DNA of 44,155 nt from Escherichia phage Shashou. Under the pieces are notes generated by a model. That model did not search any database, was not told the origin of the DNA, and worked only from the letters and a program-made list of their open reading frames with translations. The stretch is from sequence record MK931440.1; one strand, written 5' to 3'. Position numbers and translations under genes: made by a program. Shown here one piece after another: positions 3,879-41,468 of the stretch. The first letter of the stretch is position 1, and every line of letters starts with the position of its first letter.

Positions 3879-3905
3879 TTTATGCCTCCTGTTTAAGTTA
3901 ACTGA

Positions 3906-3934
3906 ATAGTACCCTATTATATTGGTGTCTGCAA
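3906..3934 (-). promoter_or_regulatory. promoter TTGCAG-N17-TACTAT (minus strand) with palindrome AATAG-tacc-CTATT
   Basis: Read on minus strand; palindrome at 3905..3918; drives moron 3357..3878. Confidence 0.45.
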
Positions 3935-3978
3935 ATATCATTTTTATGCGTTACACTGACACCACTACAGGAGGGCAT

Positions 3979-5022
3979 ATGAGCTTACTAACATCATTAA
4001 TCAGCCACCAGATTTGGCTGCAACGCACCGCATCCGGTGAAGTGAAGGACCTCACACCATTCATTCAGGAGATGCGAGATGAAATCAAAAGGCAGGTGCT
4101 GTTGTTCGGCGACGACGGGCGGAGCACAGCGCGTCTGAATAAACTATTGCGCGACCTCGAGGAAGCACTTACCGGGCTAACCGGCGACTGGCAGACTAAG
4201 CTGACAGAAGACCTTAAGGAGCTTGCAGCGTATGAGGCTGAGTGGAATGTGAAGACACTCACGGCTAACGTTAATGCGGAATTTGTTACCCCGACCGCTG
4301 AACAGGTGTGGTCCGCCGCCGTGTTTCAACCACTGGCGCTAAGCGAAAAGCCCGTTGACTTCACGAAGCTTATGGAAGGCTGGGGTGAAACGGAAGTAGC
4401 TCGCCTCGTTACCGGCGTTAAGATGGGCTTTGTGCAGGGCCGGACAACACGACAGATTATCAAGAGCGTTGTTGGCAACGGTGGGCTATCGGATAAATCA
4501 GCCAACAACGCCGCCGTTGTAATCCGCACCGCTCTTTCACACGTATCTAACGAAGCCCGTAACGAGACTTATCGACAGAACAGTGACATCATCGAGAAAT
4601 ACGAGTGGGTATCCACGCTTGACAGTCGTACCAGCACAATCTGCAAGGCCAGAGACGGCATGACGTGGGGAATCGGTAAAGGCCCTATGCCCCCAGCCCA
4701 TCCGAATTGTCGAAGTACCACAGCACCTGTAATCAGTTCAGAGTTCTATTTCCTTGACGCGGGCGCAAAACGTGCGGCTAAGGGGGCAGATGGAGGTACA
4801 CAAGTTAGCGCGGATACCACTTATTATGAGTTTCTGAAACAGCAACCAGCGTGGTTTCAGGACCAGGCGTTAGGCCCGGTGCGCGGTAAGATTTTCCGCA
4901 ACAGCGGTATATCGCCGGAAGAGTTTCGCGTAATATCTGTAGATGGTTTCGGGAATCCGCTCACGCTTAAGCAGATGGCGGAACTCGATAAACGTGTTGC
5001 TGATTATCTGAAAGGGGAATAA
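3979..5022 (+). CDS. head morphogenesis protein (Mu F / SPP1 gp7-like)
   Basis: Start at Met20 of track ORF with RBS ggaggg; position after portal; size typical of minor capsid/morphogenesis protein. Confidence 0.65.
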   Translation: MSLLTSLISHQIWLQRTASGEVKDLTPFIQEMRDEIKRQVLLFGDDGRSTARLNKLLRDLEEALTGLTGDWQTKLTEDLKELAAYEAEWNVKTLTANVNAEFVTPTAEQVWSAAVFQPLALSEKPVDFTKLMEGWGETEVARLVTGVKMGFVQGRTTRQIIKSVVGNGGLSDKSANNAAVVIRTALSHVSNEARNETYRQNSDIIEKYEWVSTLDSRTSTICKARDGMTWGIGKGPMPPAHPNCRSTTAPVISSEFYFLDAGAKRAAKGADGGTQVSADTTYYEFLKQQPAWFQDQALGPVRGKIFRNSGISPEEFRVISVDGFGNPLTLKQMAELDKRVADYLKGE

Positions 5023-5483
5023 TGATGGGCTTTTTCAAAGTAACTGATGTACCTTCGCGCCGTGTTGTCCAGTACGCCCGCGTGTCAGGCTCCGGCGAGA
5101 ACGTGACCTACGTTGAAGATGAAAGTGTACTGGGTACACCTGTAGACGAGATGCCGTATGCAGATAAAACTGGTATCGCCATCACGGCGGCAGGTATGCT
5201 TTACGAGATTCCGTATCTGGAAGACGCAGGTGACGTGTACTTCTCCGTGCAACCGAAAGACGCGGAACTGGTAGACGGAAGCGCGGTAATCACGGTAGAA
5301 GTTAAGGCGTATAAAGCACCATATTCGCTGACCTGGTACAAAGACGGGAAGGAAGTCGTTAACGCACCAGAAGAAGCTTTGTCTCTGACGGTTAACGCTG
5401 CAGGCGAATACTTCGTTAAAGTTACTGATGCCGATGGTGTAGAGGCTGTGAGTAAAGCGGCGAAGGTTACTAAGCCGGAATAA
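5022..5483 (+). CDS. Ig-like domain protein (putative virion surface/decoration)
   Basis: C-terminal SLTWYKDGKEV...GEYFVKVTDADG resembles Ig-like fold signature; paralogous to 8219..8560. Confidence 0.55.
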   Translation: MMGFFKVTDVPSRRVVQYARVSGSGENVTYVEDESVLGTPVDEMPYADKTGIAITAAGMLYEIPYLEDAGDVYFSVQPKDAELVDGSAVITVEVKAYKAPYSLTWYKDGKEVVNAPEEALSLTVNAAGEYFVKVTDADGVEAVSKAAKVTKPE

Positions 5484-5486
5484 ACT

Positions 5487-5510
5487 AAAGCCCCGAAAGG
5501 GGCTTTTTAG
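5487..5510 (+). terminator. intrinsic terminator
   Basis: aagcccc-gaaa-ggggctt followed by TTTT. Confidence 0.65.
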
Positions 5511-5571
5511 CGCCTGTGATTATTCCAGTTATTCCACTCAATTGTAAATGTTGGAATAAACTATTCGAATA

Positions 5572-5600
5572 GTTGACTTTTCACTAAAAATGTGCTAAGC
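5572..5600 (+). promoter_or_regulatory. sigma70-like promoter TTGACT-N17-(TGc)TAAGCT upstream of spanin/scaffold/capsid genes
   Basis: -35 and extended -10 with 17-nt spacer; near-identical copy at 37502..37530. Confidence 0.5.
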
Positions 5601-5800
5601 TCCACCTGAGCTTGTGAAGTATGAACAAGCGACCGCGGCGCGGGCAGGTAACGGAGCGGGACGTAAGTCCTGAGTGTAGTTACGCTGACGCGTTCGGAAG
5701 GGCCATACTCTATTGCTTGTGTAAAAAGTAACTGGTTTACTGAGATTACGCCGTTTCTATGTTTAAATGATAAGGACTAGCGCCCAGCTTTAAGGCTGGG
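5601..5800 (+). ncRNA. candidate noncoding leader/small RNA (copy 1)
   Basis: No ORF; conserved 41-nt 5' element with hairpin gcttgt-N9-acaagc shared with 37531..37571; ends near hairpin cccagc-tttaag-gctggg about 5771..5793. Confidence 0.3.
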
Positions 5801-5825
5801 CTTTACTTATCGAGAAAGGAGAAAC

Positions 5826-6212
5826 ATGAATCCTAAAGCAACTGTCGTAGCTGGAGCATGTTTCATCCTCCTGACATACGGCTACGGAATCTACCAGTAT
5901 CGCAGCGGCTGGAACGAAGGCCGGGCGAATCTCGTTTCGCAGCAACAGCAGGAAGCACAGGCTGAGTTAGCGAAGAAAACACAACGGCAGCAGCAGGACG
6001 AATCTAAGGCCGCCGCTGCTGACAACGAAGGCAAGACGAAATCAGAGGTGATTACCCGTGAAGTCGTTAAGTACATTAAAACGCCTGGCCGCAGCGTGTG
6101 CACTTTCGACGATGCTCGCGTCCTGCTCAAGTCCCACGCCGTTGCCAACGCCAATTCCATCCCCGGATACGACGATGATGCAGCCGCCGTGCAAACTGGC
6201 ACCGCCAAGTAG
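5826..6212 (+). CDS. i-spanin (Rz-like)
   Basis: N-terminal TM segment (ATVVAGACFILLTYGYGIY) followed by Q/E/K-rich coiled-coil; overlapped by lipoprotein ORF in +1 frame. Confidence 0.6.
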   Translation: MNPKATVVAGACFILLTYGYGIYQYRSGWNEGRANLVSQQQQEAQAELAKKTQRQQQDESKAAAADNEGKTKSEVITREVVKYIKTPGRSVCTFDDARVLLKSHAVANANSIPGYDDDAAAVQTGTAK

Positions 6213-6321
6213 CGACGCTGACGAGGATTTAGCTATCGACGTTCAGAACGCCGAATGTGTACGGCAACTGAGACTGAAAGTGTTCATGTTGCAGGATTAC
6301 GTGAGGAATATTCTGGAATAG
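6058..6321 (+). CDS. o-spanin (Rz1-like lipoprotein)
   Basis: GTG start; signal peptide ending in lipobox LASC; proline-rich mature region; overlaps 3' end of Rz-like ORF in a different frame. Confidence 0.6.
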   Translation: MKSLSTLKRLAAACALSTMLASCSSPTPLPTPIPSPDTTMMQPPCKLAPPSSDADEDLAIDVQNAECVRQLRLKVFMLQDYVRNILE

Positions 6322-6403
6322 TTGCCTTGCATGTTGGAATAATTTATTCTTGACATGTAAATCCGGGTGGCCCGGGTTCCAACGTCCAGGGGACATACTG
6401 AAT

Positions 6404-7105
6404 ATGAATCGTTTTTTACGTTATCCGTTCCAGGAAGAAGCTGGGGCAGAAGATAAAGCCGGTGGCGGTAGCGCACCGAAAATGTTCACCGCTGAAGAAG
6501 TTCAGGCGCTGATTGAGAAAGAAGTTGCAGGGCTTAAGGCCAATCAGGAAGCATTACTGGCAGAGAAGAAAGAAGCCGCTCGTAAAGCAAGAGAGGCTGA
6601 AGAAGAACGGCAGCGCGCGCACCAGGAGGCGTTAAAGGCCGCTGGTAAGATGGACGAGTTCGAAAAGACGATTCGTAGCCAGTATGACCCGGTGTTAGCC
6701 GAGAAAGATGGCCGCATCTCCAAAATGGCAGAGCGCATCCTCGGTAGCGAACGTAAAGCGGTGTTAGGCTCTTTCGCGGGTGACTTCATTACCCCGGAAG
6801 CAGTAGACATTCTTGCTCCGTTCGTTAAGACTGAGTTTGATGGCGATGATGTGGTTACTAAGTTTGTTGGCGCAGATGGCAACGTAATCACAACTGACCC
6901 GGAACAGTTCCGCAAATACCTGCGTGAACACAAAGCGTTTTCGCATTTGATTAAAGCAAATGCAGCTTCCGGCGGCGGGGCTTCCGGCGGCAAAGGCGGC
7001 GGGGCCGCACCAGCGTTTAAAGACATGAACGAAGCGGAGCGTTTAGCTCTGTACAAATCGAACCCTGCCGAATTTGAACGGCAACTTAAAGCCCTGAGGA
7101 AATAA
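6404..7105 (+). CDS. scaffolding protein (putative)
   Basis: Highly charged, alanine/glutamate-rich helical protein immediately upstream of major capsid gene; start codon uncertain (track ORF opens at TTG 6350). Confidence 0.55.
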   Translation: MNRFLRYPFQEEAGAEDKAGGGSAPKMFTAEEVQALIEKEVAGLKANQEALLAEKKEAARKAREAEEERQRAHQEALKAAGKMDEFEKTIRSQYDPVLAEKDGRISKMAERILGSERKAVLGSFAGDFITPEAVDILAPFVKTEFDGDDVVTKFVGADGNVITTDPEQFRKYLREHKAFSHLIKANAASGGGASGGKGGGAAPAFKDMNEAERLALYKSNPAEFERQLKALRK

Positions 7106-7107
7106 TA

Positions 7108-8157
7108 ATGGCAATTACCACTATCGGCGATATCGTAACTGGCAACGTACCCGTCCTTCTGTCCTATATGACTGAGGACCCGGTAGAGAAAACTGCGTTC
7201 TTCCAGTCCGGCATCCTGGCCCCGACCCCGTACGCTGCTGAGATTGCTCGCGGTCCGTCCAACGTCGCTAATATTCCTTTCTGGAAAGCGATTGATACCT
7301 CTATCGAGCCGAACTACTCGAACGATGTATATCAGGACATCGCCACTCCACGCAACGTACAAACCGGTGAGATGATGGCACGCGTCGCTTATCTGAACGA
7401 AGGCTTCGGACAGGCAGACCTGACTGTTGAACTGACCAGCCAGAACCCGCTGCAATCTGTTGCCGCTCGTCTGGATAACTTCTGGCAGCGTCAGGCACAG
7501 CGCCGTCTGATTGCTACCGCTCTCGGCCTGTATAACGACAACGTAACGGCAACCGATGCTTACCACGAGCAGAACGACATGGTTATCGACGTGTCTGCGA
7601 CTCTGGGCTTCGATTCTGGCGCGTTCATTGACGCTACCCAAACCATGGGTGACGCGCTGATGGGTAATGGTGGTGAAGTGCTGGGGGCAATCGCGATGCA
7701 TAGCTTCGTGTATGCGCAGGCGCGTAAGCAACAGCTTATCGACTTCATCCGCGATGCCGACAACAACACCATGTTCGCCACCTACCAGGGCTACCGCGTG
7801 ATTGTTGACGACAGCATGACCGTAGTTGGTACTGGCTCTAGCCGTAAGTTCATCTCCATCATCTTCGGCAACGGCGCTATCGGTTATGGCGAAGGCAATC
7901 CGTCCAATCCGCTGGAATACGAGCGTGAAGCGTCCCGCGGTAACGGCGGTGGTGTTGAAACCCTGTGGACCCGTAAGACCTGGTTGCTGCATCCGCTGGG
8001 TTACAGCTTCACCAGCGCGGTAATCACCGGTAACGGTACTGAAACCGTAGCCCGCTCTGCTTCCTGGCAGGACCTGGCGAACGCCTCCAACTGGAACCGC
8101 GTTGTTGACCGTAAGCATGTGCCGATTGCCTTCCTGGTAACTGGTGTAAAGGCTTAA
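7108..8157 (+). CDS. major capsid protein
   Basis: 349-aa ORF after scaffold, followed by strong intrinsic terminator; typical position and size. Confidence 0.8.
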   Translation: MAITTIGDIVTGNVPVLLSYMTEDPVEKTAFFQSGILAPTPYAAEIARGPSNVANIPFWKAIDTSIEPNYSNDVYQDIATPRNVQTGEMMARVAYLNEGFGQADLTVELTSQNPLQSVAARLDNFWQRQAQRRLIATALGLYNDNVTATDAYHEQNDMVIDVSATLGFDSGAFIDATQTMGDALMGNGGEVLGAIAMHSFVYAQARKQQLIDFIRDADNNTMFATYQGYRVIVDDSMTVVGTGSSRKFISIIFGNGAIGYGEGNPSNPLEYEREASRGNGGGVETLWTRKTWLLHPLGYSFTSAVITGNGTETVARSASWQDLANASNWNRVVDRKHVPIAFLVTGVKA

Positions 8158-8173
8158 GGTTAAGTTATAATCG

Positions 8174-8197
8174 AGAGGGACTTCGGTCCCTCTTTTC
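8174..8197 (+). terminator. intrinsic terminator after major capsid gene
   Basis: gagggac-ttcg-gtccctc followed by TTTT. Confidence 0.7.
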
Positions 8198-8218
8198 ATT
8201 TACTAAGAGGACTCCTCA

Positions 8219-8560
8219 ATGGCAGACGTATTGAAACGACGCACTACGGGTGTTTCTGCGGATACAGTTGGCGCTAAGATTGACATGGAGACTATTTCTC
8301 CAGCGTCTTTCTCCCCCGCGCTCGCTGCAACCACATCCGTCACAGCGGGTGAAACTATGACACTGACCGTAACAGTAACTGGCGGTCTGAAGCCATATTC
8401 ATATCAGTGGTACAAAGATAACAACGCTATCGCCGGGGGTACCGCGGCTACCTATGCTAAAGCGTCGACCACTGCCGCCGATTCCGGCACGTATAAAGTG
8501 GTTGTTCACGATGTGTATGGTAATATTATCTCCAGCAGCACTGTAGCAACTGTGTCTTAA
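8219..8560 (+). CDS. Ig-like domain protein (putative head decoration)
   Basis: KPYSYQWYKDNNAIAGG...SGTYKVVVHDVYG Ig-like motif; paralog of C-terminus of 5022..5483. Confidence 0.55.
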   Translation: MADVLKRRTTGVSADTVGAKIDMETISPASFSPALAATTSVTAGETMTLTVTVTGGLKPYSYQWYKDNNAIAGGTAATYAKASTTAADSGTYKVVVHDVYGNIISSSTVATVS

Positions 8561-8596
8561 TACAATGGCCCTTCGGGGCCATAATAAGGAAAGGTC

Positions 8597-8776
8597 ATGG
8601 CAGATAATTACGTAATCCGCGAAAAGTACACCCACGTTGATATTGTTGATGGTCAGGTGATGCCAGTGCGCGGTGTTGTAGATGCGGATGAGCTTGTAGC
8701 AACACAACCGGATAACGAAGGAGCACACAACAACGGTGGTGGTACTAAGCGTCGTCGCCGTAAGTCTGAGGAATAA
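8597..8776 (+). CDS. small basic protein (59 aa), hypothetical
   Basis: ATG with RBS aaggaaagg; fills gap between flanking genes; C-terminal KRRRRK; below the 60-aa track cutoff. Confidence 0.45.
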   Translation: MADNYVIREKYTHVDIVDGQVMPVRGVVDADELVATQPDNEGAHNNGGGTKRRRRKSEE

Positions 8777-8779
8777 TTT

Positions 8780-9292
8780 ATGCCGCTAATCGTGGAAGAC
8801 GGGTCAATAGTCCCGAATGCTGACAGTTACGTTAGCCTGGCCGACGCCCGCGCGTTAGCGGCTAATTATGGTCTTGAGCTACCAGCTGACGATACCACCG
8901 CAGAGGTGGCCCTGCGAAATGGTGCTACGTACGTCGGCCTGTCCGAACCGCAGATGTGTGGTCGCCGTGTGTCCGCCGAGCAGTCGCTGACATACCCGCG
9001 CACCGGGGTAACGCTGAACGGCTTCCCTGTGGCTAACAATGTAATTCCTAAGCAGGTAATTCTTGCACAGGTAATCGCCGCAGTAACATATGGCGCAGGT
9101 ACAGAGGTGAGGGCTAACTCCGACGGACGTTCAGTACAGACTGAGCGCGTAGAGGGTGCAGTAACCGTCACCTACTTCAACAACGGTAGTTCTGGCGCTA
9201 CTACGTCAATCACCGCAGCAGACGACGCCTTGCGCCCGCTTCTTTGCGGCGGCCTTAACAATGGCTTCTCATTTAACGTGTACCGGGGTTAA
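8780..9292 (+). CDS. head-tail connector protein (gp6-like, putative)
   Basis: Position after capsid genes; N-terminal SLADARALAANYGLELPADD resembles gp6-like connector N-termini. Confidence 0.45.
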   Translation: MPLIVEDGSIVPNADSYVSLADARALAANYGLELPADDTTAEVALRNGATYVGLSEPQMCGRRVSAEQSLTYPRTGVTLNGFPVANNVIPKQVILAQVIAAVTYGAGTEVRANSDGRSVQTERVEGAVTVTYFNNGSSGATTSITAADDALRPLLCGGLNNGFSFNVYRG

Positions 9293-9294
9293 AA

Positions 9295-9909
9295 ATGGCG
9301 AAGACTAAAACAGAGATATTTACGCTAATCGGGTCTGAATTACCGGATAACACAACCGGGCTAATCACCCCAGCTAAGTTACGCGGGGTGCTAACCCAAA
9401 TGGCTGACTCGCCGATTTATGTCACACCCGGCGTGAAAGAGGTTGAGGTGCTACGTGCCGCATCGACCATAGCACAAGCGCCAACCGCAGTAGATACCGC
9501 ATTGCAGTTAACTTTCGGCTCTGCTCAGGGAAGCGCATCCGACCCCGTGATGATTAACACGGCAGGTTTGGTTACGTTCAACACCGCAGGTAACTACGCC
9601 GTTCGCATCAAGTTACAGGCGGGGCGCACGGGTGCTAGCGGTACATCAATCCTGTTATCGCGTATTCTTCCGAACGGCTCTCAGTACGGCTCGCCAGCTG
9701 CCACGAAACTGGTAAGCGCGGACGTGACCATCCCGATTGAATCCCGCGTCGTTATTAACCCAACCGCGGGCCAGACTTTTGCCGTTCAGATTATGCGGGA
9801 TAGCGCCGGGAGTAACTTCGGTGGCGTATACCCTCAAGCGGCTACCGTAACTGCATGGGGTACCGCACCGTCCGCGCTACTGGTTATCTCGAGACTGGAG
9901 GCTGCGTAA
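9295..9909 (+). CDS. hypothetical structural protein
   Basis: Tightly packed ORF in head-tail joining region. Confidence 0.5.
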   Translation: MAKTKTEIFTLIGSELPDNTTGLITPAKLRGVLTQMADSPIYVTPGVKEVEVLRAASTIAQAPTAVDTALQLTFGSAQGSASDPVMINTAGLVTFNTAGNYAVRIKLQAGRTGASGTSILLSRILPNGSQYGSPAATKLVSADVTIPIESRVVINPTAGQTFAVQIMRDSAGSNFGGVYPQAATVTAWGTAPSALLVISRLEAA

Positions 9910-24750: not shown

Positions 24751-24888
24751 CTACTCTTCGGATAACTTCTCCAGTACAAACGCCAGTTGCGCATTAGCGG
24801 CGTCTCTCTGTTGCCGTAGTCGTAGAACCTCTTCTTCGAGTTCCTCGATACGTTTTTGCAATGCCGGAATTGGGGCTATGATGTTCAT
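24751..24888 (-). CDS. small coiled-coil protein (45 aa), hypothetical
   Basis: ATGA overlap with helicase stop; heptad-like IEELEEEVLRLRQQ; ends at terminator; not in ORF track. Confidence 0.4.
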   Translation of the reverse strand: MNIIAPIPALQKRIEELEEEVLRLRQQRDAANAQLAFVLEKLSEE

Positions 24889-27350
24889 TTCTTACCTCGT
24901 CTCTTCATGTAATTAAGCAATTCTTCCTGTACAGATTTCTTCTCGTCGGTGCGCGCGGCAACAACCTCATCCAGCGTGTCTTTAGCGACGATGTGATAGA
25001 GGAACACCGGGCGCTCGTGTCCAGCCTGTTTCTGACGAACAGGGCCTATGCGCTCGACAACCTGCAAATAGTGCTCGAGGTTCCATCCCTGACTTATAAA
25101 CGCCAGATGATGCCCTCCATCCTGTAAATTCAAACCATGGCCGGCTGACGCGGGATGAACACATAAGATTTCGATTTCACCACGGTTCCACGCTTCCATC
25201 TGCTTATTACCCTTAGCTCCTTTGGCAAACGCCTTAGCCTGCGGGAATCGCTTAAGTATGCGCTCCAGTTCGTGTTTAAACTGATAGGCCACCAGTAACG
25301 GCGCGCCCTGCAACTCCTCAACAATGGACTCCAGTGCGTCCAGTTTCGTGTCATGCACTTTCTCCCAGTCTTTCGTTGCTTCGCCATCTGGCCCTGATAC
25401 ATACACGGCACCGGACGCAATCTGGAGACACTTTGATGTCTTCGCTGCCGCGTTAGCGGCTTCAACTTCCCCGCTCTCGAGTTCCGCAAATAACTTCTCC
25501 TCCATATCGATGTACGCCTGACGCGCTTTCTTCGGCAGGTCTATTTCAACAGGAACGATAATCGGCGCTTCGCAACCGAACCACTCTGCAGCATCGATAG
25601 TGAGACTGATATCCTTCATCTTCTGATGAATCTCGGTATCCGCGCCCGGGCGAGCGTGATACTCACGCGCCATAGCCGATTTGCCTTTCTGTATCGAATT
25701 AAACCAGCGGTCGGTAAACGCCGTATACGAAGAACCAAGTCGCTCGCCTGCGTCTATAAACCAGTTCTGCCCCCACAAGTCTTTGAGGCCGTTTGGTGAC
25801 GGCGTACCGGTCAGGTTGATAAAACGCTTAACCTTACCAAACGCCACTTTACTAAGCGCCTTTGCTCGCTTGCTGCCACCAGAACGGCTGCGGAACGATT
25901 TAAGCTTCGTGCTCTCGTCGGCAACGATAACTGTGAAAGGCCAGTCGTCTTTGCCGTAGTAGTCAATCAGCCACTCGATAACTTCGTAGTTAGTGCACAC
26001 CACGTTAGCGTCGGACTCAAGCGCCGTGATGCGGCGCTTCTCCGAACCGGTCGCATCTACTACACGCAGGCACGGGAAACCCCAACGTGCCTGTTCCGCG
26101 GGCCACGTGCCAGACGCAACACGCAACGGGGCGAGGATTAACACGCGGTCGTCGTCATTAAGTTGCCCATTACGGAACAGGCGGTTGAGAACCCACAACG
26201 TTGAGCTTGTATTGTGCGTGACAGTGAAGTCCCCCAATAAAAACCTACTGTCACCGTCGATAGTGAAGCCGAAATAATCATCTACGCCGACCGGGGTTAT
26301 GGATTCTATACCAACGTTAAGCACGTTCTTATTAATATTACGCTTCGGTAAATTCTGGTGGCGTCCTCGCACGAAAGGTACCTCAGAAAAATCGCCAGAT
26401 ACCGACACACGGAAGTAGTCACCCCAAACATCAGTGTTTGCGCAACGCTTACGAGTTTTCTTCTTGTAAGCAGCAAAACCAAGAGAACGGCATAGATAGC
26501 AAAAATCATCAGCAAGTCGCTCGCTTACCGAAATCCAGTCAAAACCCGCTTTAGACAAATCGCAGTAACCATCACTATCCAGAAGCCCCGCCAGCAATTC
26601 TAACCGCTGTCGCCGGTCGCCGCATTTGTAACTATGCGGTATATGCTTATTGTTCAGGACACCCGCCGATTTCAGCGCGTGCGTAAACCCGTGCTTCTTA
26701 TGACCTGTGTTGCCGTAAGATATACTCCATGTAAGTCCTTCTTTTCGTATTTGCATCCCATTACGTGCTGCGTACGACTCAAGATAAGCCCTTATTTCCT
26801 TTTCGTTCTCTCCTGATGTTATGGCCCCCGACGACGAAGTACCGTCACCCAGCCATAACCCCATAAGGTACGGAGGCAATAAAGCCTCGTCCTGCTCTTT
26901 CCTTGTAAAATCGACAGGTACCCGCCAACCCTTAAGATACCCATTAGGTCCGGTTACATATTTCGGCAACTTAAGCCAGTCGCGGACGCTTATGTCGAAA
27001 ACGGTATTATCTGGCCATGAACCTTTTGCAATCCCTGTAGTAGTTCGCAGGGATAATATATGGCTTTCGTTGACCGTATACGACTCTCCTTTTCGCGGTT
27101 TAACCTCGTACATCATCTCCCGGCCTCTACCGAGAGACAGTACATTTCTAGGCGTTGAATCCGGCCCCATAAGCACGTCACCGACGATGACGTCTTCTAC
27201 TTTCTTGGTCGTACCGTCAAACATAATAACTTCCGTCCCGCGTTTCAGGCACTTGCCGCTGCCCATACTAGCCCAGATATTGCAACGTGGGTGCTGTAAC
27301 ATAAACGACGTCATTATTTTCTGGTATTCCCTGCGCCTAAATTTACTCAT
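24885..27350 (-). CDS. SF2 (SNF2-like) helicase interrupted by an intein
   Basis: Walker A split as MGSGK | intein | TSSTLW; DExx box VIVADEST; C-terminal helicase motifs incl QVVERIGPVRQ. Confidence 0.8.
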   Translation of the reverse strand: MSKFRRREYQKIMTSFMLQHPRCNIWASMGSGKCLKRGTEVIMFDGTTKKVEDVIVGDVLMGPDSTPRNVLSLGRGREMMYEVKPRKGESYTVNESHILSLRTTTGIAKGSWPDNTVFDISVRDWLKLPKYVTGPNGYLKGWRVPVDFTRKEQDEALLPPYLMGLWLGDGTSSSGAITSGENEKEIRAYLESYAARNGMQIRKEGLTWSISYGNTGHKKHGFTHALKSAGVLNNKHIPHSYKCGDRRQRLELLAGLLDSDGYCDLSKAGFDWISVSERLADDFCYLCRSLGFAAYKKKTRKRCANTDVWGDYFRVSVSGDFSEVPFVRGRHQNLPKRNINKNVLNVGIESITPVGVDDYFGFTIDGDSRFLLGDFTVTHNTSSTLWVLNRLFRNGQLNDDDRVLILAPLRVASGTWPAEQARWGFPCLRVVDATGSEKRRITALESDANVVCTNYEVIEWLIDYYGKDDWPFTVIVADESTKLKSFRSRSGGSKRAKALSKVAFGKVKRFINLTGTPSPNGLKDLWGQNWFIDAGERLGSSYTAFTDRWFNSIQKGKSAMAREYHARPGADTEIHQKMKDISLTIDAAEWFGCEAPIIVPVEIDLPKKARQAYIDMEEKLFAELESGEVEAANAAAKTSKCLQIASGAVYVSGPDGEATKDWEKVHDTKLDALESIVEELQGAPLLVAYQFKHELERILKRFPQAKAFAKGAKGNKQMEAWNRGEIEILCVHPASAGHGLNLQDGGHHLAFISQGWNLEHYLQVVERIGPVRQKQAGHERPVFLYHIVAKDTLDEVVAARTDEKKSVQEELLNYMKRRGKK
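26211..27251 (-). mobile_element. intein with LAGLIDADG homing endonuclease domain (about 347 aa)
   Basis: Begins with Cys after GSGK, ends THN followed by Thr; LAGLIDADG-type motifs LMGLWLGDG and LAGLLDSDG; excision restores GSGKT. Confidence 0.75.
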
Positions 27351-37501: not shown

Positions 37502-37530
37502 TTGACTTTTACTAAGAAATATGGTAAGCT
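37502..37530 (+). promoter_or_regulatory. sigma70-like promoter TTGACT-N17-(TGg)TAAGCT
   Basis: Paralog of promoter at 5572; followed by the same conserved leader. Confidence 0.5.
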
Positions 37531-37790
37531 CAGCCTGAGCTTGTGAAGTATGAACAAGCGACCGCGGCGCGCGGCAGGCGAAACGAGCACGTGTAGCGTG
37601 TGGAGTGAGGCTCGCTAGCGCGTTTGGGAGGCCCCAAGTCTATTGTAATTCCAGCCTAAGTAGCTAAGTTACTGATTTGCCGTAGGTTAGAACCGCCAGC
37701 TCACTCACTCACTCTTGGTGCCTTCGGCACCACGTTCGTTTCGTTTCGCTCGCTACCCCCTTAAACGAAAGAATCACAACGGCAACGTAA
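37531..37790 (+). ncRNA. candidate noncoding leader/small RNA (copy 2)
   Basis: No ORF of 60 aa or more; same 5' element; contains UUCG-loop hairpin ggtgcc-ttcg-gcacc and short tandem repeats. Confidence 0.3.
37699..37754 (+). repeat. short tandem repeats (ctcactcactcactc; cgtttcgtttcg) flanking a tetraloop hairpin
   Basis: Direct repeats visible in the noncoding region between divergent operons. Confidence 0.5.
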
Positions 37791-38791: not shown

Positions 38792-38941
38792 ATGGTTACT
38801 TTGATGATTATGGAGTTCGAAAACAGCGCTGCAACTTACCGCGAGATGACTATGGCGCAGGCGTACCACCTGGCTAAACACAGCAACTTCTACAAGGCTC
38901 AAATCATTAATGAGTTTGGGGTAATTGACTATGAATTTTAA
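38792..38941 (+). CDS. small hypothetical protein (49 aa)
   Basis: RBS gagaggagagg downstream of promoter 38732..38760; not in ORF track. Confidence 0.4.
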   Translation: MVTLMIMEFENSAATYREMTMAQAYHLAKHSNFYKAQIINEFGVIDYEF

Positions 38942-39203
38942 CAGCTACACCGTGACCGTTGATTTTGAGGGGCTGGAGTTGCCCCTCCCTAACAACTACC
39001 GGTACATAACGCGCGATAGTAATGGGTTTATTCAGGGGTGGAAGAACAAACCGACGGATACTGAGTTCGGGATGTCAGGAGGAGAAGAGTTGCCGGTCAC
39101 TTTCGGGCATCAGAGTAGCAATGGAGAACTTAAAACGGTGATTCGTAAGTATCGTCGCCGCGATAACACCGGGCTTATCGCAATAACAGGCGCTGTTGAA
39201 TAA
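38931..39203 (+). CDS. hypothetical protein
   Basis: ATG at Met3 of track ORF. Confidence 0.45.
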   Translation: MNFNSYTVTVDFEGLELPLPNNYRYITRDSNGFIQGWKNKPTDTEFGMSGGEELPVTFGHQSSNGELKTVIRKYRRRDNTGLIAITGAVE

Positions 39204-39222
39204 GCGAGAGGAGAGACAGAAG

Positions 39223-39711
39223 ATGAGTAACAAAAACGAAGTATTCGAGTACCTGATTGACCAACTACGGCAGCAGGTAAATAGCAACCCGTACAAGCAA
39301 CAGTGCGAAGACCTGGCGCACGAGGTGTTGTCACTCAAGAATCAGTTACGTGATGCGTCAGAACATATTAAGGAGTTGCATAAGGCGTTGGCTGCAGCTA
39401 CGGGTGACGTAGGCGCTTATATAGCAGCAGAGCAATCTGGTTGCCGTAAGGAAGATACTCAGTACAACGCCTGGAGGCCGCATTATGGTGCACGACAACC
39501 TGTGCCGGATGGGACTATGGTATTTATCCGGTATCGCAACGGGGAGGAGCTGAAACACAGTGTAGCAGCAGAAAAGAGGTTGTGGATTTGGGATGGAACA
39601 TACGCAGACATAGTGGAATACAAGATTGACACACAGGAATGCGAGCACAATTGGTTATATAGTAAACACAAAAGTGGCTTCGTTTGCTTTAATTGTGGGG
39701 CGCGTAAGTAA
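39223..39711 (+). CDS. hypothetical protein with C-terminal Cys/His cluster
   Basis: Start at Met10 of track ORF with RBS gagaggag; C-terminal CEHNW...CFNC. Confidence 0.5.
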   Translation: MSNKNEVFEYLIDQLRQQVNSNPYKQQCEDLAHEVLSLKNQLRDASEHIKELHKALAAATGDVGAYIAAEQSGCRKEDTQYNAWRPHYGARQPVPDGTMVFIRYRNGEELKHSVAAEKRLWIWDGTYADIVEYKIDTQECEHNWLYSKHKSGFVCFNCGARK

Positions 39712-39911
39712 TGACCAGCGTCCTATTTATATGGGTACTGTACGCAGGCCAGTTACAACTAGCGGCAACAGAAACGTTTTACTCACTGGATGCGTGCCAG
39801 GCTGCGGCACGCAACGCAGAGAACGCGCACTTCCTGTTTCAGGATAAGCCGATTGATACTGAGGTGCGCGCGACATGTTCAACGAAACGATTAGCTAAGC
39901 AGGAGAAATAA
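39711..39911 (+). CDS. hypothetical protein with hydrophobic N-terminus
   Basis: Stop-start overlap; N-terminal VLFIWVLYAGQLQLAA. Confidence 0.45.
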   Translation: MTSVLFIWVLYAGQLQLAATETFYSLDACQAAARNAENAHFLFQDKPIDTEVRATCSTKRLAKQEK

Positions 39912-40122: not shown

Positions 40123-40376
40123 TGGTGCAGAGATACGACTTAACAGAATACTACGTGAGTGGTGCGGTAGATATAACGCCTGTCCCGGACTCGCATGAAG
40201 GGCGTTATGTAAGCTACGAAGACTACGCGCAACTCGAAGCTGAACTCATGAAAGTAAAAGCCGCAGCCCGTTGTCTTGTGCGAGAAGCAGGTAAGGTGTA
40301 TAGCGATTATAGTGACGTTATAGCACCTGAGTTTGTAGACCAGCAAACCATACACGAACTAGGTATTCTGTTATGA
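40122..40376 (+). CDS. hypothetical protein (MVQRY paralog 2)
   Basis: Start at Met16 of track ORF; begins MVQRYD. Confidence 0.5.
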   Translation: MVQRYDLTEYYVSGAVDITPVPDSHEGRYVSYEDYAQLEAELMKVKAAARCLVREAGKVYSDYSDVIAPEFVDQQTIHELGILL

Positions 40377-40666
40377 GCCTTGCAACTGACATCCTGAAAC
40401 GCAGCGGCCTTGCGCCGCTGTCGCCGAGAGCAAACACTCAGATATACAAGCGCCGCCGTAATACGCTGTACCCAGAGATACAGGAACGACGTAAAGCTAT
40501 CCGCGCCTGTGGATTCCAGAACGGGAAGGCCGTGAATCTCGGTGAGTTTAAAACACAAGAACGCGCCGCAATCGCTAATCGACTATTTAATTACTGGAAA
40601 TCGCTGGGGTACGATGATATTCCGACGAAACCCCAGAGACGACAATACATCTGGAGGCACAAATGA
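40373..40666 (+). CDS. hypothetical basic protein
   Basis: ATGA overlap with upstream gene. Confidence 0.5.
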   Translation: MSLATDILKRSGLAPLSPRANTQIYKRRRNTLYPEIQERRKAIRACGFQNGKAVNLGEFKTQERAAIANRLFNYWKSLGYDDIPTKPQRRQYIWRHK

Positions 40667-41100
40667 CTACTATCGCGTTTGACGGAAAGACGATGGCCTG
40701 TGACACCCGAGTAACCGGAGACCACATCTACAACACAGATACCAAGATATATGAGAACGAGTTTGTTGTTATCGGTGTAGCAGGCAATGCTGAGGCTGGT
40801 ATCCTTTTAGTGAAGGACGATAGTATTTTAGTACCTAAGCACTACGATTTTGATTTCTCTGCTTTGGTGTGGGTTAAAGACATCGAAACGTTGTGCAAAG
40901 TAGAATTCTATAAATCATGGGATTGTGCACTAAGTTCGGTTATCCCTGTTGCAGATGGTTTTGCCGCCGTCGGTTCCGGTGCACCTTATGCACTGGCGGC
41001 TATGTATTTAGGTAATACGGCAACACGTGCAATTACTATAGCAGAGCAATTCGACCCTAACACCGGCGGCAATATTATTACCAAACAACTATTAGGATAA
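40663..41100 (+). CDS. HslV-like Ntn-hydrolase (proteasome beta-subunit family) peptidase homolog
   Basis: Begins MTTIAFDG (Thr directly after Met as in HslV); VVIGVAGNAEAGILL and AAVGSGAPYALAAMYLG match HslV blocks VIAGFAGGTADAFTL and IAIGSGGPYAQAAARAL. Confidence 0.6.
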   Translation: MTTIAFDGKTMACDTRVTGDHIYNTDTKIYENEFVVIGVAGNAEAGILLVKDDSILVPKHYDFDFSALVWVKDIETLCKVEFYKSWDCALSSVIPVADGFAAVGSGAPYALAAMYLGNTATRAITIAEQFDPNTGGNIITKQLLG

Positions 41101-41159
41101 TTCCTAACCGTGCTATCCTCCAGTTACTGCATACTTAATACGCACCTGGAGGATTCATC

Positions 41160-41468
41160 TTGGATAAATTTACTGAAACAGTGCCGGTGTGGCTTCTCAC
41201 CGCCGCACTGGTCGGTGGATTGGTCGGACTAAGACAACATAAAAAGTCTATATCCGGTCCAGTCGACGGACTGGTATTTCTTCTCACCGGCTTCGCGTGT
41301 GCCGTTTTCGGTGCACCTCTTGCCGCTCAATGGTTCGGTATTACCGGTGAGCGCGAGATAGCTGGCCTCGGATTCATCATTGCCGTTCTCTGGATGCCTA
41401 TCTATTCCCGCCTTTCTGGCATTGTCGCCGGAGAATACATCGCACGTCGCGGAGGTGGCAATGAATGA
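41160..41468 (+). CDS. holin (putative)
   Basis: TTG start with RBS ggagga; three hydrophobic segments; immediately upstream of endolysin. Confidence 0.55.
   Translation: MDKFTETVPVWLLTAALVGGLVGLRQHKKSISGPVDGLVFLLTGFACAVFGAPLAAQWFGITGEREIAGLGFIIAVLWMPIYSRLSGIVAGEYIARRGGGNE

Follow-up and report, generated by a model that had tools for sequence, protein, structure and literature searches.

Two Ig-like domain proteins encoded in the head module of Escherichia phage Shashou: candidate accessory proteins of the virion

Introduction

Ig-like domains displayed on phage capsids are known from T4 Hoc and the Hoc-like proteins (RB49 Hoc, 3SHS; Sf14 gp20; Moo19, 9D7Z; N4 gp17, 9E99). Hoc itself has three Ig-like domains in tandem and, C-terminal to them, a domain that binds the capsid (PMC5292684, PMC11821841); apart from T4 Hoc, Ig-type decoration proteins bind the capsid through an N-terminal part (PMC11821841). 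A small example of the latter arrangement is pb10 of phage T5 (PDB 5LXK, 8ZVI), in which an alpha-helical N-terminal capsid-binding domain is joined to a single exposed C-terminal Ig domain and the protein is bound at hexamer centres (PMC5292684). Ig-like domains are also found in siphophage tail proteins, where they are tandem C-terminal additions to large proteins.

The Guernseyvirinae have been described as structurally uncharacterised (PMC13243795), and no capsid structure from this subfamily was found in the copy of the PDB searched, where the nearest solved capsid is that of SPP1. Here we examine two small proteins, referred to as A and B, whose genes flank the capsid genes in a phage closely related to a member of this group. 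Ig-domain accessory proteins beside capsid genes are already annotated and are standard phage biology; the value of the comparison lies in annotation tidying, as the names given to this pair differ between records of roughly 450-490 Guernseyvirinae genomes.

Results

Layout of the locus

The window, which is the whole stretch of 44,155 nucleotides analysed (Escherichia phage Shashou, MK931440.1), is 99.9% identical to the record of Escherichia phage Sciku (MK931439.1; Kagunavirus, Guernseyvirinae) and is 1,025 bp longer. The possibility that this excess reflects the end of the window wrapping round its start was ruled out, and it corresponds to an insertion of roughly 1 kb. An earlier note on this DNA had placed two ORFs at 5022..5483 and 8219..8560, flanking the capsid genes; both are present at exactly those coordinates, with the scaffold and major capsid genes between them. 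The features are as follows.

5022..5483, + strand: gene A, 153 aa, 16.6 kDa; its counterpart in the Sciku record is CPT_Sciku_006
5022..5231, + strand: putative N-terminal anchor domain of A, residues 1-70; orphan, conserved within the family
5232..5480, + strand: Ig-like domain of A (I-set/C2-type beta-sandwich), residues 71-153
5487..5506, + strand: hairpin directly 3' of A; the Sciku record has a + strand terminator at 5490-5508
6404..7105: scaffold gene, between A and B
7108..8157, + strand: major capsid protein, SPP1 gp13-like, HK97 fold; phrog_247, E 4.9e-119
8173..8194, + strand: terminator-like hairpin between the capsid gene and B
8219..8560, + strand: gene B, 113 aa; its counterpart in the Sciku record is CPT_Sciku_012 'decoration protein'
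8219..8323, + strand: putative N-terminal anchor segment of B, residues 1-35; conserved across the family
8324..8557, + strand: Ig-like domain of B (I-set), residues 36-113

Both genes sit in the head module, A after the head-morphogenesis gene and B after the capsid gene and its hairpin, and the interval between them also holds a small ORF and the Rz/Rz1 spanins. The start codon of A and the stop codon of the head-morphogenesis gene 5' of it (SPP1 gp7-like) share bases in the sequence TAATG, and translation of A appears to be coupled to that gene. The annotated terminator after A would close a unit of portal, head-morphogenesis and A genes; as the pattern scan reported the hairpin 3' of A on the - strand only, termination on the + strand rests on the Sciku annotation. 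The hairpin at 8173..8194 is conserved in phage Bas71 too, and is likely to make expression of B lower than that of the capsid protein. The latter, which is the presumed binding partner, matched the SPP1 coat protein in the PDB (4an5/6r3a, E 7e-43). A repeated promoter-leader element matched no Rfam family and folded with a z-score of -1.2.

The Ig-like domains

An Ig-like fold had been suggested for both proteins, and this is borne out by Pfam, AlphaFold2 and Foldseek, although A falls below the Pfam cut-offs. B passes the curated thresholds (given in brackets) of Ig_3 with 33.1 bits (30), Ig_2 with 30.5 (27) and I-set with 23.8 (23.7). The best scores of A are 20.9 for Ig_3 (30) and 18.6 for Big_2 (22.8), with PKD sub-threshold too, and its tie to the Ig superfamily by sequence comes from its matches in the PDB and from a profile-profile comparison with B (hhalign, A 85-142 with B 44-104; 96% probability, E 3.7e-9).

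In the AlphaFold2 models, residues 71-153 of A are all-beta with mean pLDDT values of 73-93 over blocks of 10 residues, and B is all-beta from approximately residue 41 with block means of 69-88, residues 31-40 being at approximately 52. When compared to the PDB with Foldseek, both models matched I-set/C2 Ig domains with a probability of 1.0; the matches of A were to Axl, Tyro3, Robo, titin and the Moo19 and N4 decoration proteins, and those of B were to Moo19, N4 and pb10. Hoc-like proteins were matched in phmmer as well as in Foldseek, and the model of A gave matches to Hoc, outer capsid and decorating proteins in BFVD. A two-sheet Greek-key Ig beta-sandwich is therefore supported, as a predicted structure, for the C-terminal part of each protein. 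B has a core tryptophan (W64), as is typical of strand C of Ig domains, and the D-x-G-x-Y tyrosine corner of strand F, D88-S-G-T-Y92 (DSGTYKV). In A the core residue is W105 and the corner position is occupied by A126-A-G-E-Y130, where the glycine and tyrosine are kept and the aspartate is absent; G128 and Y130 are invariant across the A family. Neither protein has a cysteine. Variable positions in the Ig domain of A are concentrated in a few stretches, as expected if it is exposed.

The earlier note had also described a signature of Y-x-W-Y-K-D common to both proteins. The shared motif is real, but this literal form occurs only in B (YQWYKD), A having LTWYKD, and the true common signature is P-Y-S-x-x-W-Y-K-D, found at 5319-5345 in A (PYSLTWYKD) and at 8393-8419 in B (PYSYQWYKD). 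Within 88,306 six-frame residues WYKD is found in two places only, which are A and B, against 0.04 expected from composition. BLASTP aligned the two proteins with 36% identity over 53 aa (E 5e-5), and judged by these sequence comparisons the similarity is more than chance. Family HMMs of A and B were compared to all 349 ORFs of the whole window (stop-to-stop, at least 50 aa) and matched only each other's ORF (1.1e-8 and 1.8e-4), the next-best match having an E value of 0.46. No third Ig domain of this type was found with the HMMs in these 349 ORFs or with Pfam in ten tail/neck proteins.

Family membership and annotation

Both proteins matched PHROG families labelled 'Hoc-like head decoration' over their full lengths, A to phrog_3945 (E 2.3e-83, profile positions 1-152 of 152) and B to phrog_4069 (E 1.6e-48, profile positions 1-116 of 116), this label itself having been assigned by homology. 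The GenBank annotations are "Ig-like domain" for A and "decoration protein" for B. A is present in 488 phage records and B in 457, where homologues are otherwise named tail protein, fibritin, neck whiskers or tailspike, apparently through propagation of annotations.

Comparison with described Ig proteins and the N-terminal segments

Of the described systems, T5 pb10 is similar in design, as A and B are likewise small and in each a putative N-terminal anchor precedes a single Ig-like domain at the C-terminus, and this is the order found in the Ig decoration proteins other than Hoc. The Ig domain of pb10 is homologous to that of B (8zvi_a E 5.3e-14, 5lxk E 5e-13; 44% identity to 5lxk in Foldseek) and more weakly to that of A (profile against 5lxk, E 3.4e-4). 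These alignments span only the Ig domain, pb10 residues 71-147 for B and 85-156 for A. As the alignment with B begins at pb10 residue 71, the capsid-binding domain of pb10 is without a counterpart in B; the same holds for A, and in its place are approximately 35 unrelated residues in B and 70 in A. The capsids differ too, that of Shashou being SPP1-like and that of T5 having 120 hexamers. Hoc itself is only marginally similar by sequence (E 0.004 for B, 0.048 for the A profile) and differs in architecture, A and B having one Ig domain and a non-Ig part at the N-terminus. The Ig domains of siphophage tail proteins (9C2D_S, 9NCF_S; phrog_158, 3995 and 853) belong to the same subfamily as that of B; however, A and B are small, free-standing proteins of the head module. 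The trimeric coiled coil and C-terminal foldon of T4 fibritin (Wac) are features that neither protein has; Pfam gave no fibritin or coiled-coil family for A or B at E<=1, and the models show either beta structure alone or disorder.

No helices are predicted in the N-terminal parts of A and B, and these parts gave no match in the PDB. AlphaFold2 confidence is low here (pLDDT <50 for residues 1-70 of A, which are modelled as beta-rich, and for residues 1-22 of B), so fold searches are uninformative on the anchors. When residues 1-70 of A were used in an exhaustive phmmer search of 1.84 billion proteins, 11 representatives reached E<=0.001. Five of these 11 were inspected and gave no functional lead: two are of the same family, and the others are a cadherin-repeat protein, a low-complexity repeat and a chimeric ORF.

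Discussion

We consider it reasonably likely that A and B are separate, probably non-essential accessory proteins of the virion, each composed of an N-terminal anchor and an exposed C-terminal Ig domain. A short lineage-specific N-terminal segment would fix each protein to the virion, and the single cysteine-free Ig-like domain would project into solvent. B would most likely act in the manner of T5 pb10 and decorate the capsid by binding its SPP1-type lattice, perhaps at the centres of hexamers; A would likewise display an Ig domain, from another position on the head or the neck. Once displayed, these domains could bind glycans of mucus or host cells weakly and multivalently, and they might also add somewhat to the stability of the particle. 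Such a role in surface decoration or adhesion fits the PHROG and GenBank labels; the presence of A and B in virions, their binding site, stoichiometry and ligand are what we infer.

Bas71, an isolated, plaque-forming Kagunavirus, has lost the first 51 codons of B together with its start codon and RBS, and keeps only the last 62 codons. As this phage is viable with a truncated B, the protein is probably dispensable, as pb10 is, this being an observation on one relative; no equivalent natural truncation was found for A. No virion proteomics or structure placing A or B was found in the literature. The JSSK01 study identified the capsid protein alone, and A is not among the proteins identified in virions of phage eta, for which only bands of at least 38 kDa were analysed, so that a protein of 16.6 kDa was never examined there.

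The earlier note had regarded A and B as paralogous proteins that arose by duplication, and this part is not supported. The PYSxxWYKD motif and the significant similarity of the Ig domains speak for whole-gene paralogues duplicated within this phage lineage, and the family of B is the nearest other PHROG family to A, but narrowly so (2.0e-6, ahead of phrog_2973 at 2.3e-6). The homology, however, is limited to the Ig domain of roughly 60-80 residues, the N-terminal 70 aa of A and approximately 35 aa of B being unrelated. The Ig domain of B scores 55.6 bits against T5 pb10 (E 5e-14) and 15.5 bits against A; it matched multi-Ig tail proteins with E values of 1e-26 to 1e-32, and five other PHROG families outscore that of A against B. 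Furthermore, Serratia eta-like phages carry A without B. A recent duplication within the genome was rejected on the score comparisons, and we regard whole-gene paralogy as highly improbable. As the Ig domain of B is far closer to pb10 than to A, domain sharing in a widespread phage Ig family is indicated, and the sequence data fit A and B being independent members of a mobile family of Ig domains.

Whether both proteins would be on the capsid shell can be questioned, as one or both could instead be whisker-like or tube-decorating Ig proteins of the neck, collar or tail. Many GenBank homologues are named 'neck whiskers', 'fibritin' or 'tail protein', the solved structure 9occ_A ('putative neck whiskers protein gp24') was matched by B (E 8e-5) and by the A profile (E 5.7e-4), Ig domains of tail proteins were matched as described above, and B has the capsid gene on one side and the head-tail adaptor genes on the other. 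These names appear to be propagated, however, and the Pfam result for fibritin and coiled-coil families argues against such a protein; among solved relatives of B with a single Ig domain, the capsid decoration protein pb10 scores best, and A appears to be coupled to a head gene rather than a tail gene. Such a placement seems rather unlikely to us. Less likely still, and in our view improbable, is that A stays out of the virion and functions in the cell while heads are assembled, for instance by partnering the gp7-like head-morphogenesis protein. This would suit the TAATG overlap, the conserved unit of portal, gp7-like and A genes closed by a terminator, which is seen likewise in Serratia phage eta, and the absence of A from the eta virion proteins, but the size limit of that analysis removes the weight of the last point. 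The clustered variable positions in the Ig domain of A are as for an exposed domain. To our knowledge, phage Ig domains of this type are attached to virion structural proteins (Fraser et al. 2006), which we count against an intracellular A.

Within the preferred reading of A and B as virion accessory proteins, it is possible, though doubtful, that they carry two new and unrelated anchors for two SPP1-type capsid sites, or for capsid and neck, residues 1-70 of A, which among 1.84 billion representative proteins occur almost solely in this group of phages, then being an undescribed virion-binding fold. If this is true, that fold could serve for display in the way that the anchor of pb10 does, anchors of this type being used in antigen display. 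Many of these Guernseyvirinae phages are phage-therapy or biocontrol candidates, and Ig-like surface domains bear on immunogenicity and on adherence to mucus or host.

Over 13.3 kb the window shows 13 differences from the Sciku record, three of which are in B; all three change an amino acid, as could be the case for a protein that is exposed and evolves fast. What occupies the position 3' of the capsid gene also varies, K1ind1 carrying an extra fibre-like gene of 85 aa there.

Two Ig-like proteins in the head module

Both of the open reading frames (ORFs) described in the earlier note, A and B, are present, and to say that they flank the capsid genes is fair, as the scaffold and SPP1-like major capsid genes lie between them.

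5022..5483 (+): A, 153 aa
Between A and B: 36-aa ORF, embedded Rz/Rz1 spanin pair, scaffold gene, SPP1-like major capsid gene
8219..8560 (+): B, 113 aa

The motif proposed as their shared signature, Y-x-W-Y-K-D, occurs literally in B but not in A, and the form common to both is P-Y-S-x-x-W-Y-K-D. Across the six-frame translation of the whole window WYKD is found at these two sites only (0.04 expected). A and B match each other by BLASTP (E 5e-5) and their family alignments by hhalign (96% probability, E 3.7e-9, ~58 columns); when the two family HMMs were run against all 349 window ORFs, the sole matches were each other's ORF. At the sequence level, the similarity is thus statistically real.

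The Ig-like reading of both proteins was supported by Pfam, AlphaFold2, Foldseek and sequence matches in the PDB. B exceeds the Pfam curated cut-offs for Ig_3, Ig_2 and I-set; A falls below them, with sub-threshold matches only (Ig_3, Big_2, PKD and I-set). AlphaFold2 predicted a beta-sandwich for A residues 71-153 (mean pLDDT of 10-residue blocks 73-93) and for the C-terminal part of B (block means 69-88 from ~residue 41), with pLDDT <50 for A residues 1-70 and B residues 1-22. Foldseek against the PDB returned I-set/C2 Ig domains (Axl, Tyro3, Robo, titin and Sidekick) and phage capsid decoration proteins (Moo19 9d7z, N4 9e99/9lbz, T5 pb10 5lxk and RB49 Hoc 3shs), and the BFVD matches of A are named "Hoc protein", "outer capsid protein", "decorating protein" or as tail proteins. 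In the PDB, sequence matches to the B Ig domain include tandem-Ig tail proteins (1e-26 to 1e-32) as well as T5 pb10 (E 5e-14); A is more divergent, matching pb10 with E 0.03 by single sequence and 3.4e-4 by profile. Neither protein contains a cysteine; phage Ig domains are said, in 2006 work by Fraser et al., to be commonly without disulfides.

Origin of the pair

The proposal that A and B are paralogous proteins produced by duplication was not borne out. Their homology is confined to the Ig domain, as the N-terminal 70 residues of A and ~35 of B are related neither to each other nor to any solved structure. Duplication within the lineage is argued against by phmmer scores on the same scale (A vs B 15.5 bits, B vs pb10 55.6 bits), by five PHROG families that beat A's family against B (Hoc-like 2973 and tail 3995, 158, 9239 and 853), and by the presence of A in Serratia eta-like phages, in which B was searched for and not found. 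These comparisons fit a mobile phage Ig module that either was acquired on two separate occasions or split very long ago, with each copy joined to its own putative anchor.

When A residues 1-75 were searched exhaustively against 1.84 billion representative proteins, 11 matches reached E<=0.001; of the five examined, two are family members and three are not (cadherin repeat, low-complexity repeat, chimeric ORF). Judged from this search, that part of A is an orphan domain restricted to this phage group. Its conservation across the family is high, as would be expected if a putative binding partner constrained it, and the variable positions of A are grouped in a few stretches within the Ig domain.

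Comparison with annotated relatives

By megablast, window 3900-9300 is 99.9% identical to Escherichia phage Sciku (MK931439.1; Kagunavirus, Guernseyvirinae), with 100% query coverage and identical coordinates. A corresponds to CPT_Sciku_006, annotated "hypothetical protein; contains Ig-like domain IPR013783", and B to CPT_Sciku_012, annotated "decoration protein"; RefSeq relatives such as K1ind1 label both "Hoc-like head decoration". The finding is therefore already in public annotation, the pair being a known and unremarkable feature of a phage already sequenced.

Over the first 13.3 kb, 13 positions differ from the Sciku record. Three fall in the 342-nt gene B (~0.33 expected by length) and all are non-synonymous (S33P, E58K and T86A, at window 8315, 8390 and 8474), which, although the numbers are small, hints at a fast-evolving, exposed protein. 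With six of the 13 located within 7835-8721, either diversifying selection or a patch of recombination could be the cause.

Elsewhere, ~1.02 kb at 38849-39868, between CPT_Sciku_058 and _059, is without counterpart in MK931439.1 and includes a 171-aa ORF (39196..39711) with no Pfam match; the window is therefore a close variant of Sciku that differs from the deposited sequence. An intein-containing DNA helicase at 24885-27350 (-), reported in the Sciku record and genome announcement, is unrelated to A and B.

Gene neighbourhood

The start codon of A overlaps the stop codon of an SPP1 gp7-like head-morphogenesis gene (TAATG). A terminator is annotated directly 3' of A in the Sciku record, where our pattern scan found a hairpin on the - strand only, and eta carries the same unit of gp7-like gene, A and terminator. 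B lies downstream of the capsid gene with a terminator-like hairpin between, which would keep its expression below that of the capsid protein, in line with a presumed copy number that is a fraction of the capsid protein's.

The slot 3' of the capsid gene varies in content among relatives. K1ind1 has an extra gene there (5739-5993) for an 85-aa 'virion structural protein', with no counterpart in the window; on inspection by eye, a motif resembling tail-fibre repeats is visible in it, and its C-terminus is probably a coiled coil. In Bas71 (PQ850615.1; 1436-1674) the RBS, start codon and first 51 codons of B are deleted right after the conserved hairpin, leaving a 5'-truncated remnant of 62 codons. 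As Bas71 is a viable isolate, B is probably dispensable.

A 78-nt direct repeat (91% identity) occurs at 5573-5648, between the terminator after A and the spanin/scaffold/capsid/B genes, and at ~37503-37580. It comprises promoter-like TTGACT ... TAAGCT and a ~45-nt conserved leader with the hairpin GCTTGT/ACAAGC, and may act as a common phage promoter whose leader has a regulatory role; it matched no Rfam family and its fold z-score was only -1.2. The spanin pair embedded in the head module (i-spanin 5826..6212; o-spanin 6058..6321, lipobox LASC) lies ~34 kb upstream of the holin and endolysin genes (Sciku 40133-41196; ~1 kb further in window coordinates), and eta has its entire lysis cassette at the matching position.

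Proposed role and location

A and B would each consist of a putative N-terminal anchor followed by a displayed Ig domain, a layout like that of pb10 (PMC5292684). N-terminal capsid-binding parts are general in Ig-type decoration proteins, with the exception of T4 Hoc (PMC11821841). For B, decoration of the capsid lattice is most likely; A would be another displayed Ig protein, sited on the head or neck. Through their Ig domains, the two would adhere weakly and multivalently to glycans and possibly add some stability. The decoration or adhesion role suggested in the earlier note, itself already annotated, is plausible. That either protein belongs to the virion is inferred, as are its site, copy number and ligand, and a search of the accessible literature found no test of them; one paper describes the Guernseyvirinae as structurally uncharacterised (PMC13243795). 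In public records the two proteins are variously named decoration, tail, fibritin, neck whiskers or tailspike, so that a location on the neck or tail is still a serious rival to capsid decoration.

A 204-aa protein (9295-9909; phrog_3614, unknown function) is encoded between the head-tail adaptor and Neck1 genes. Its Pfam matches are weak only, to BclA_C (TNF/C1q-like trimer) and a podophage fibre protein. It is a possible neck/collar appendage and hence a candidate 'whisker', a role which certain records give to A or B.
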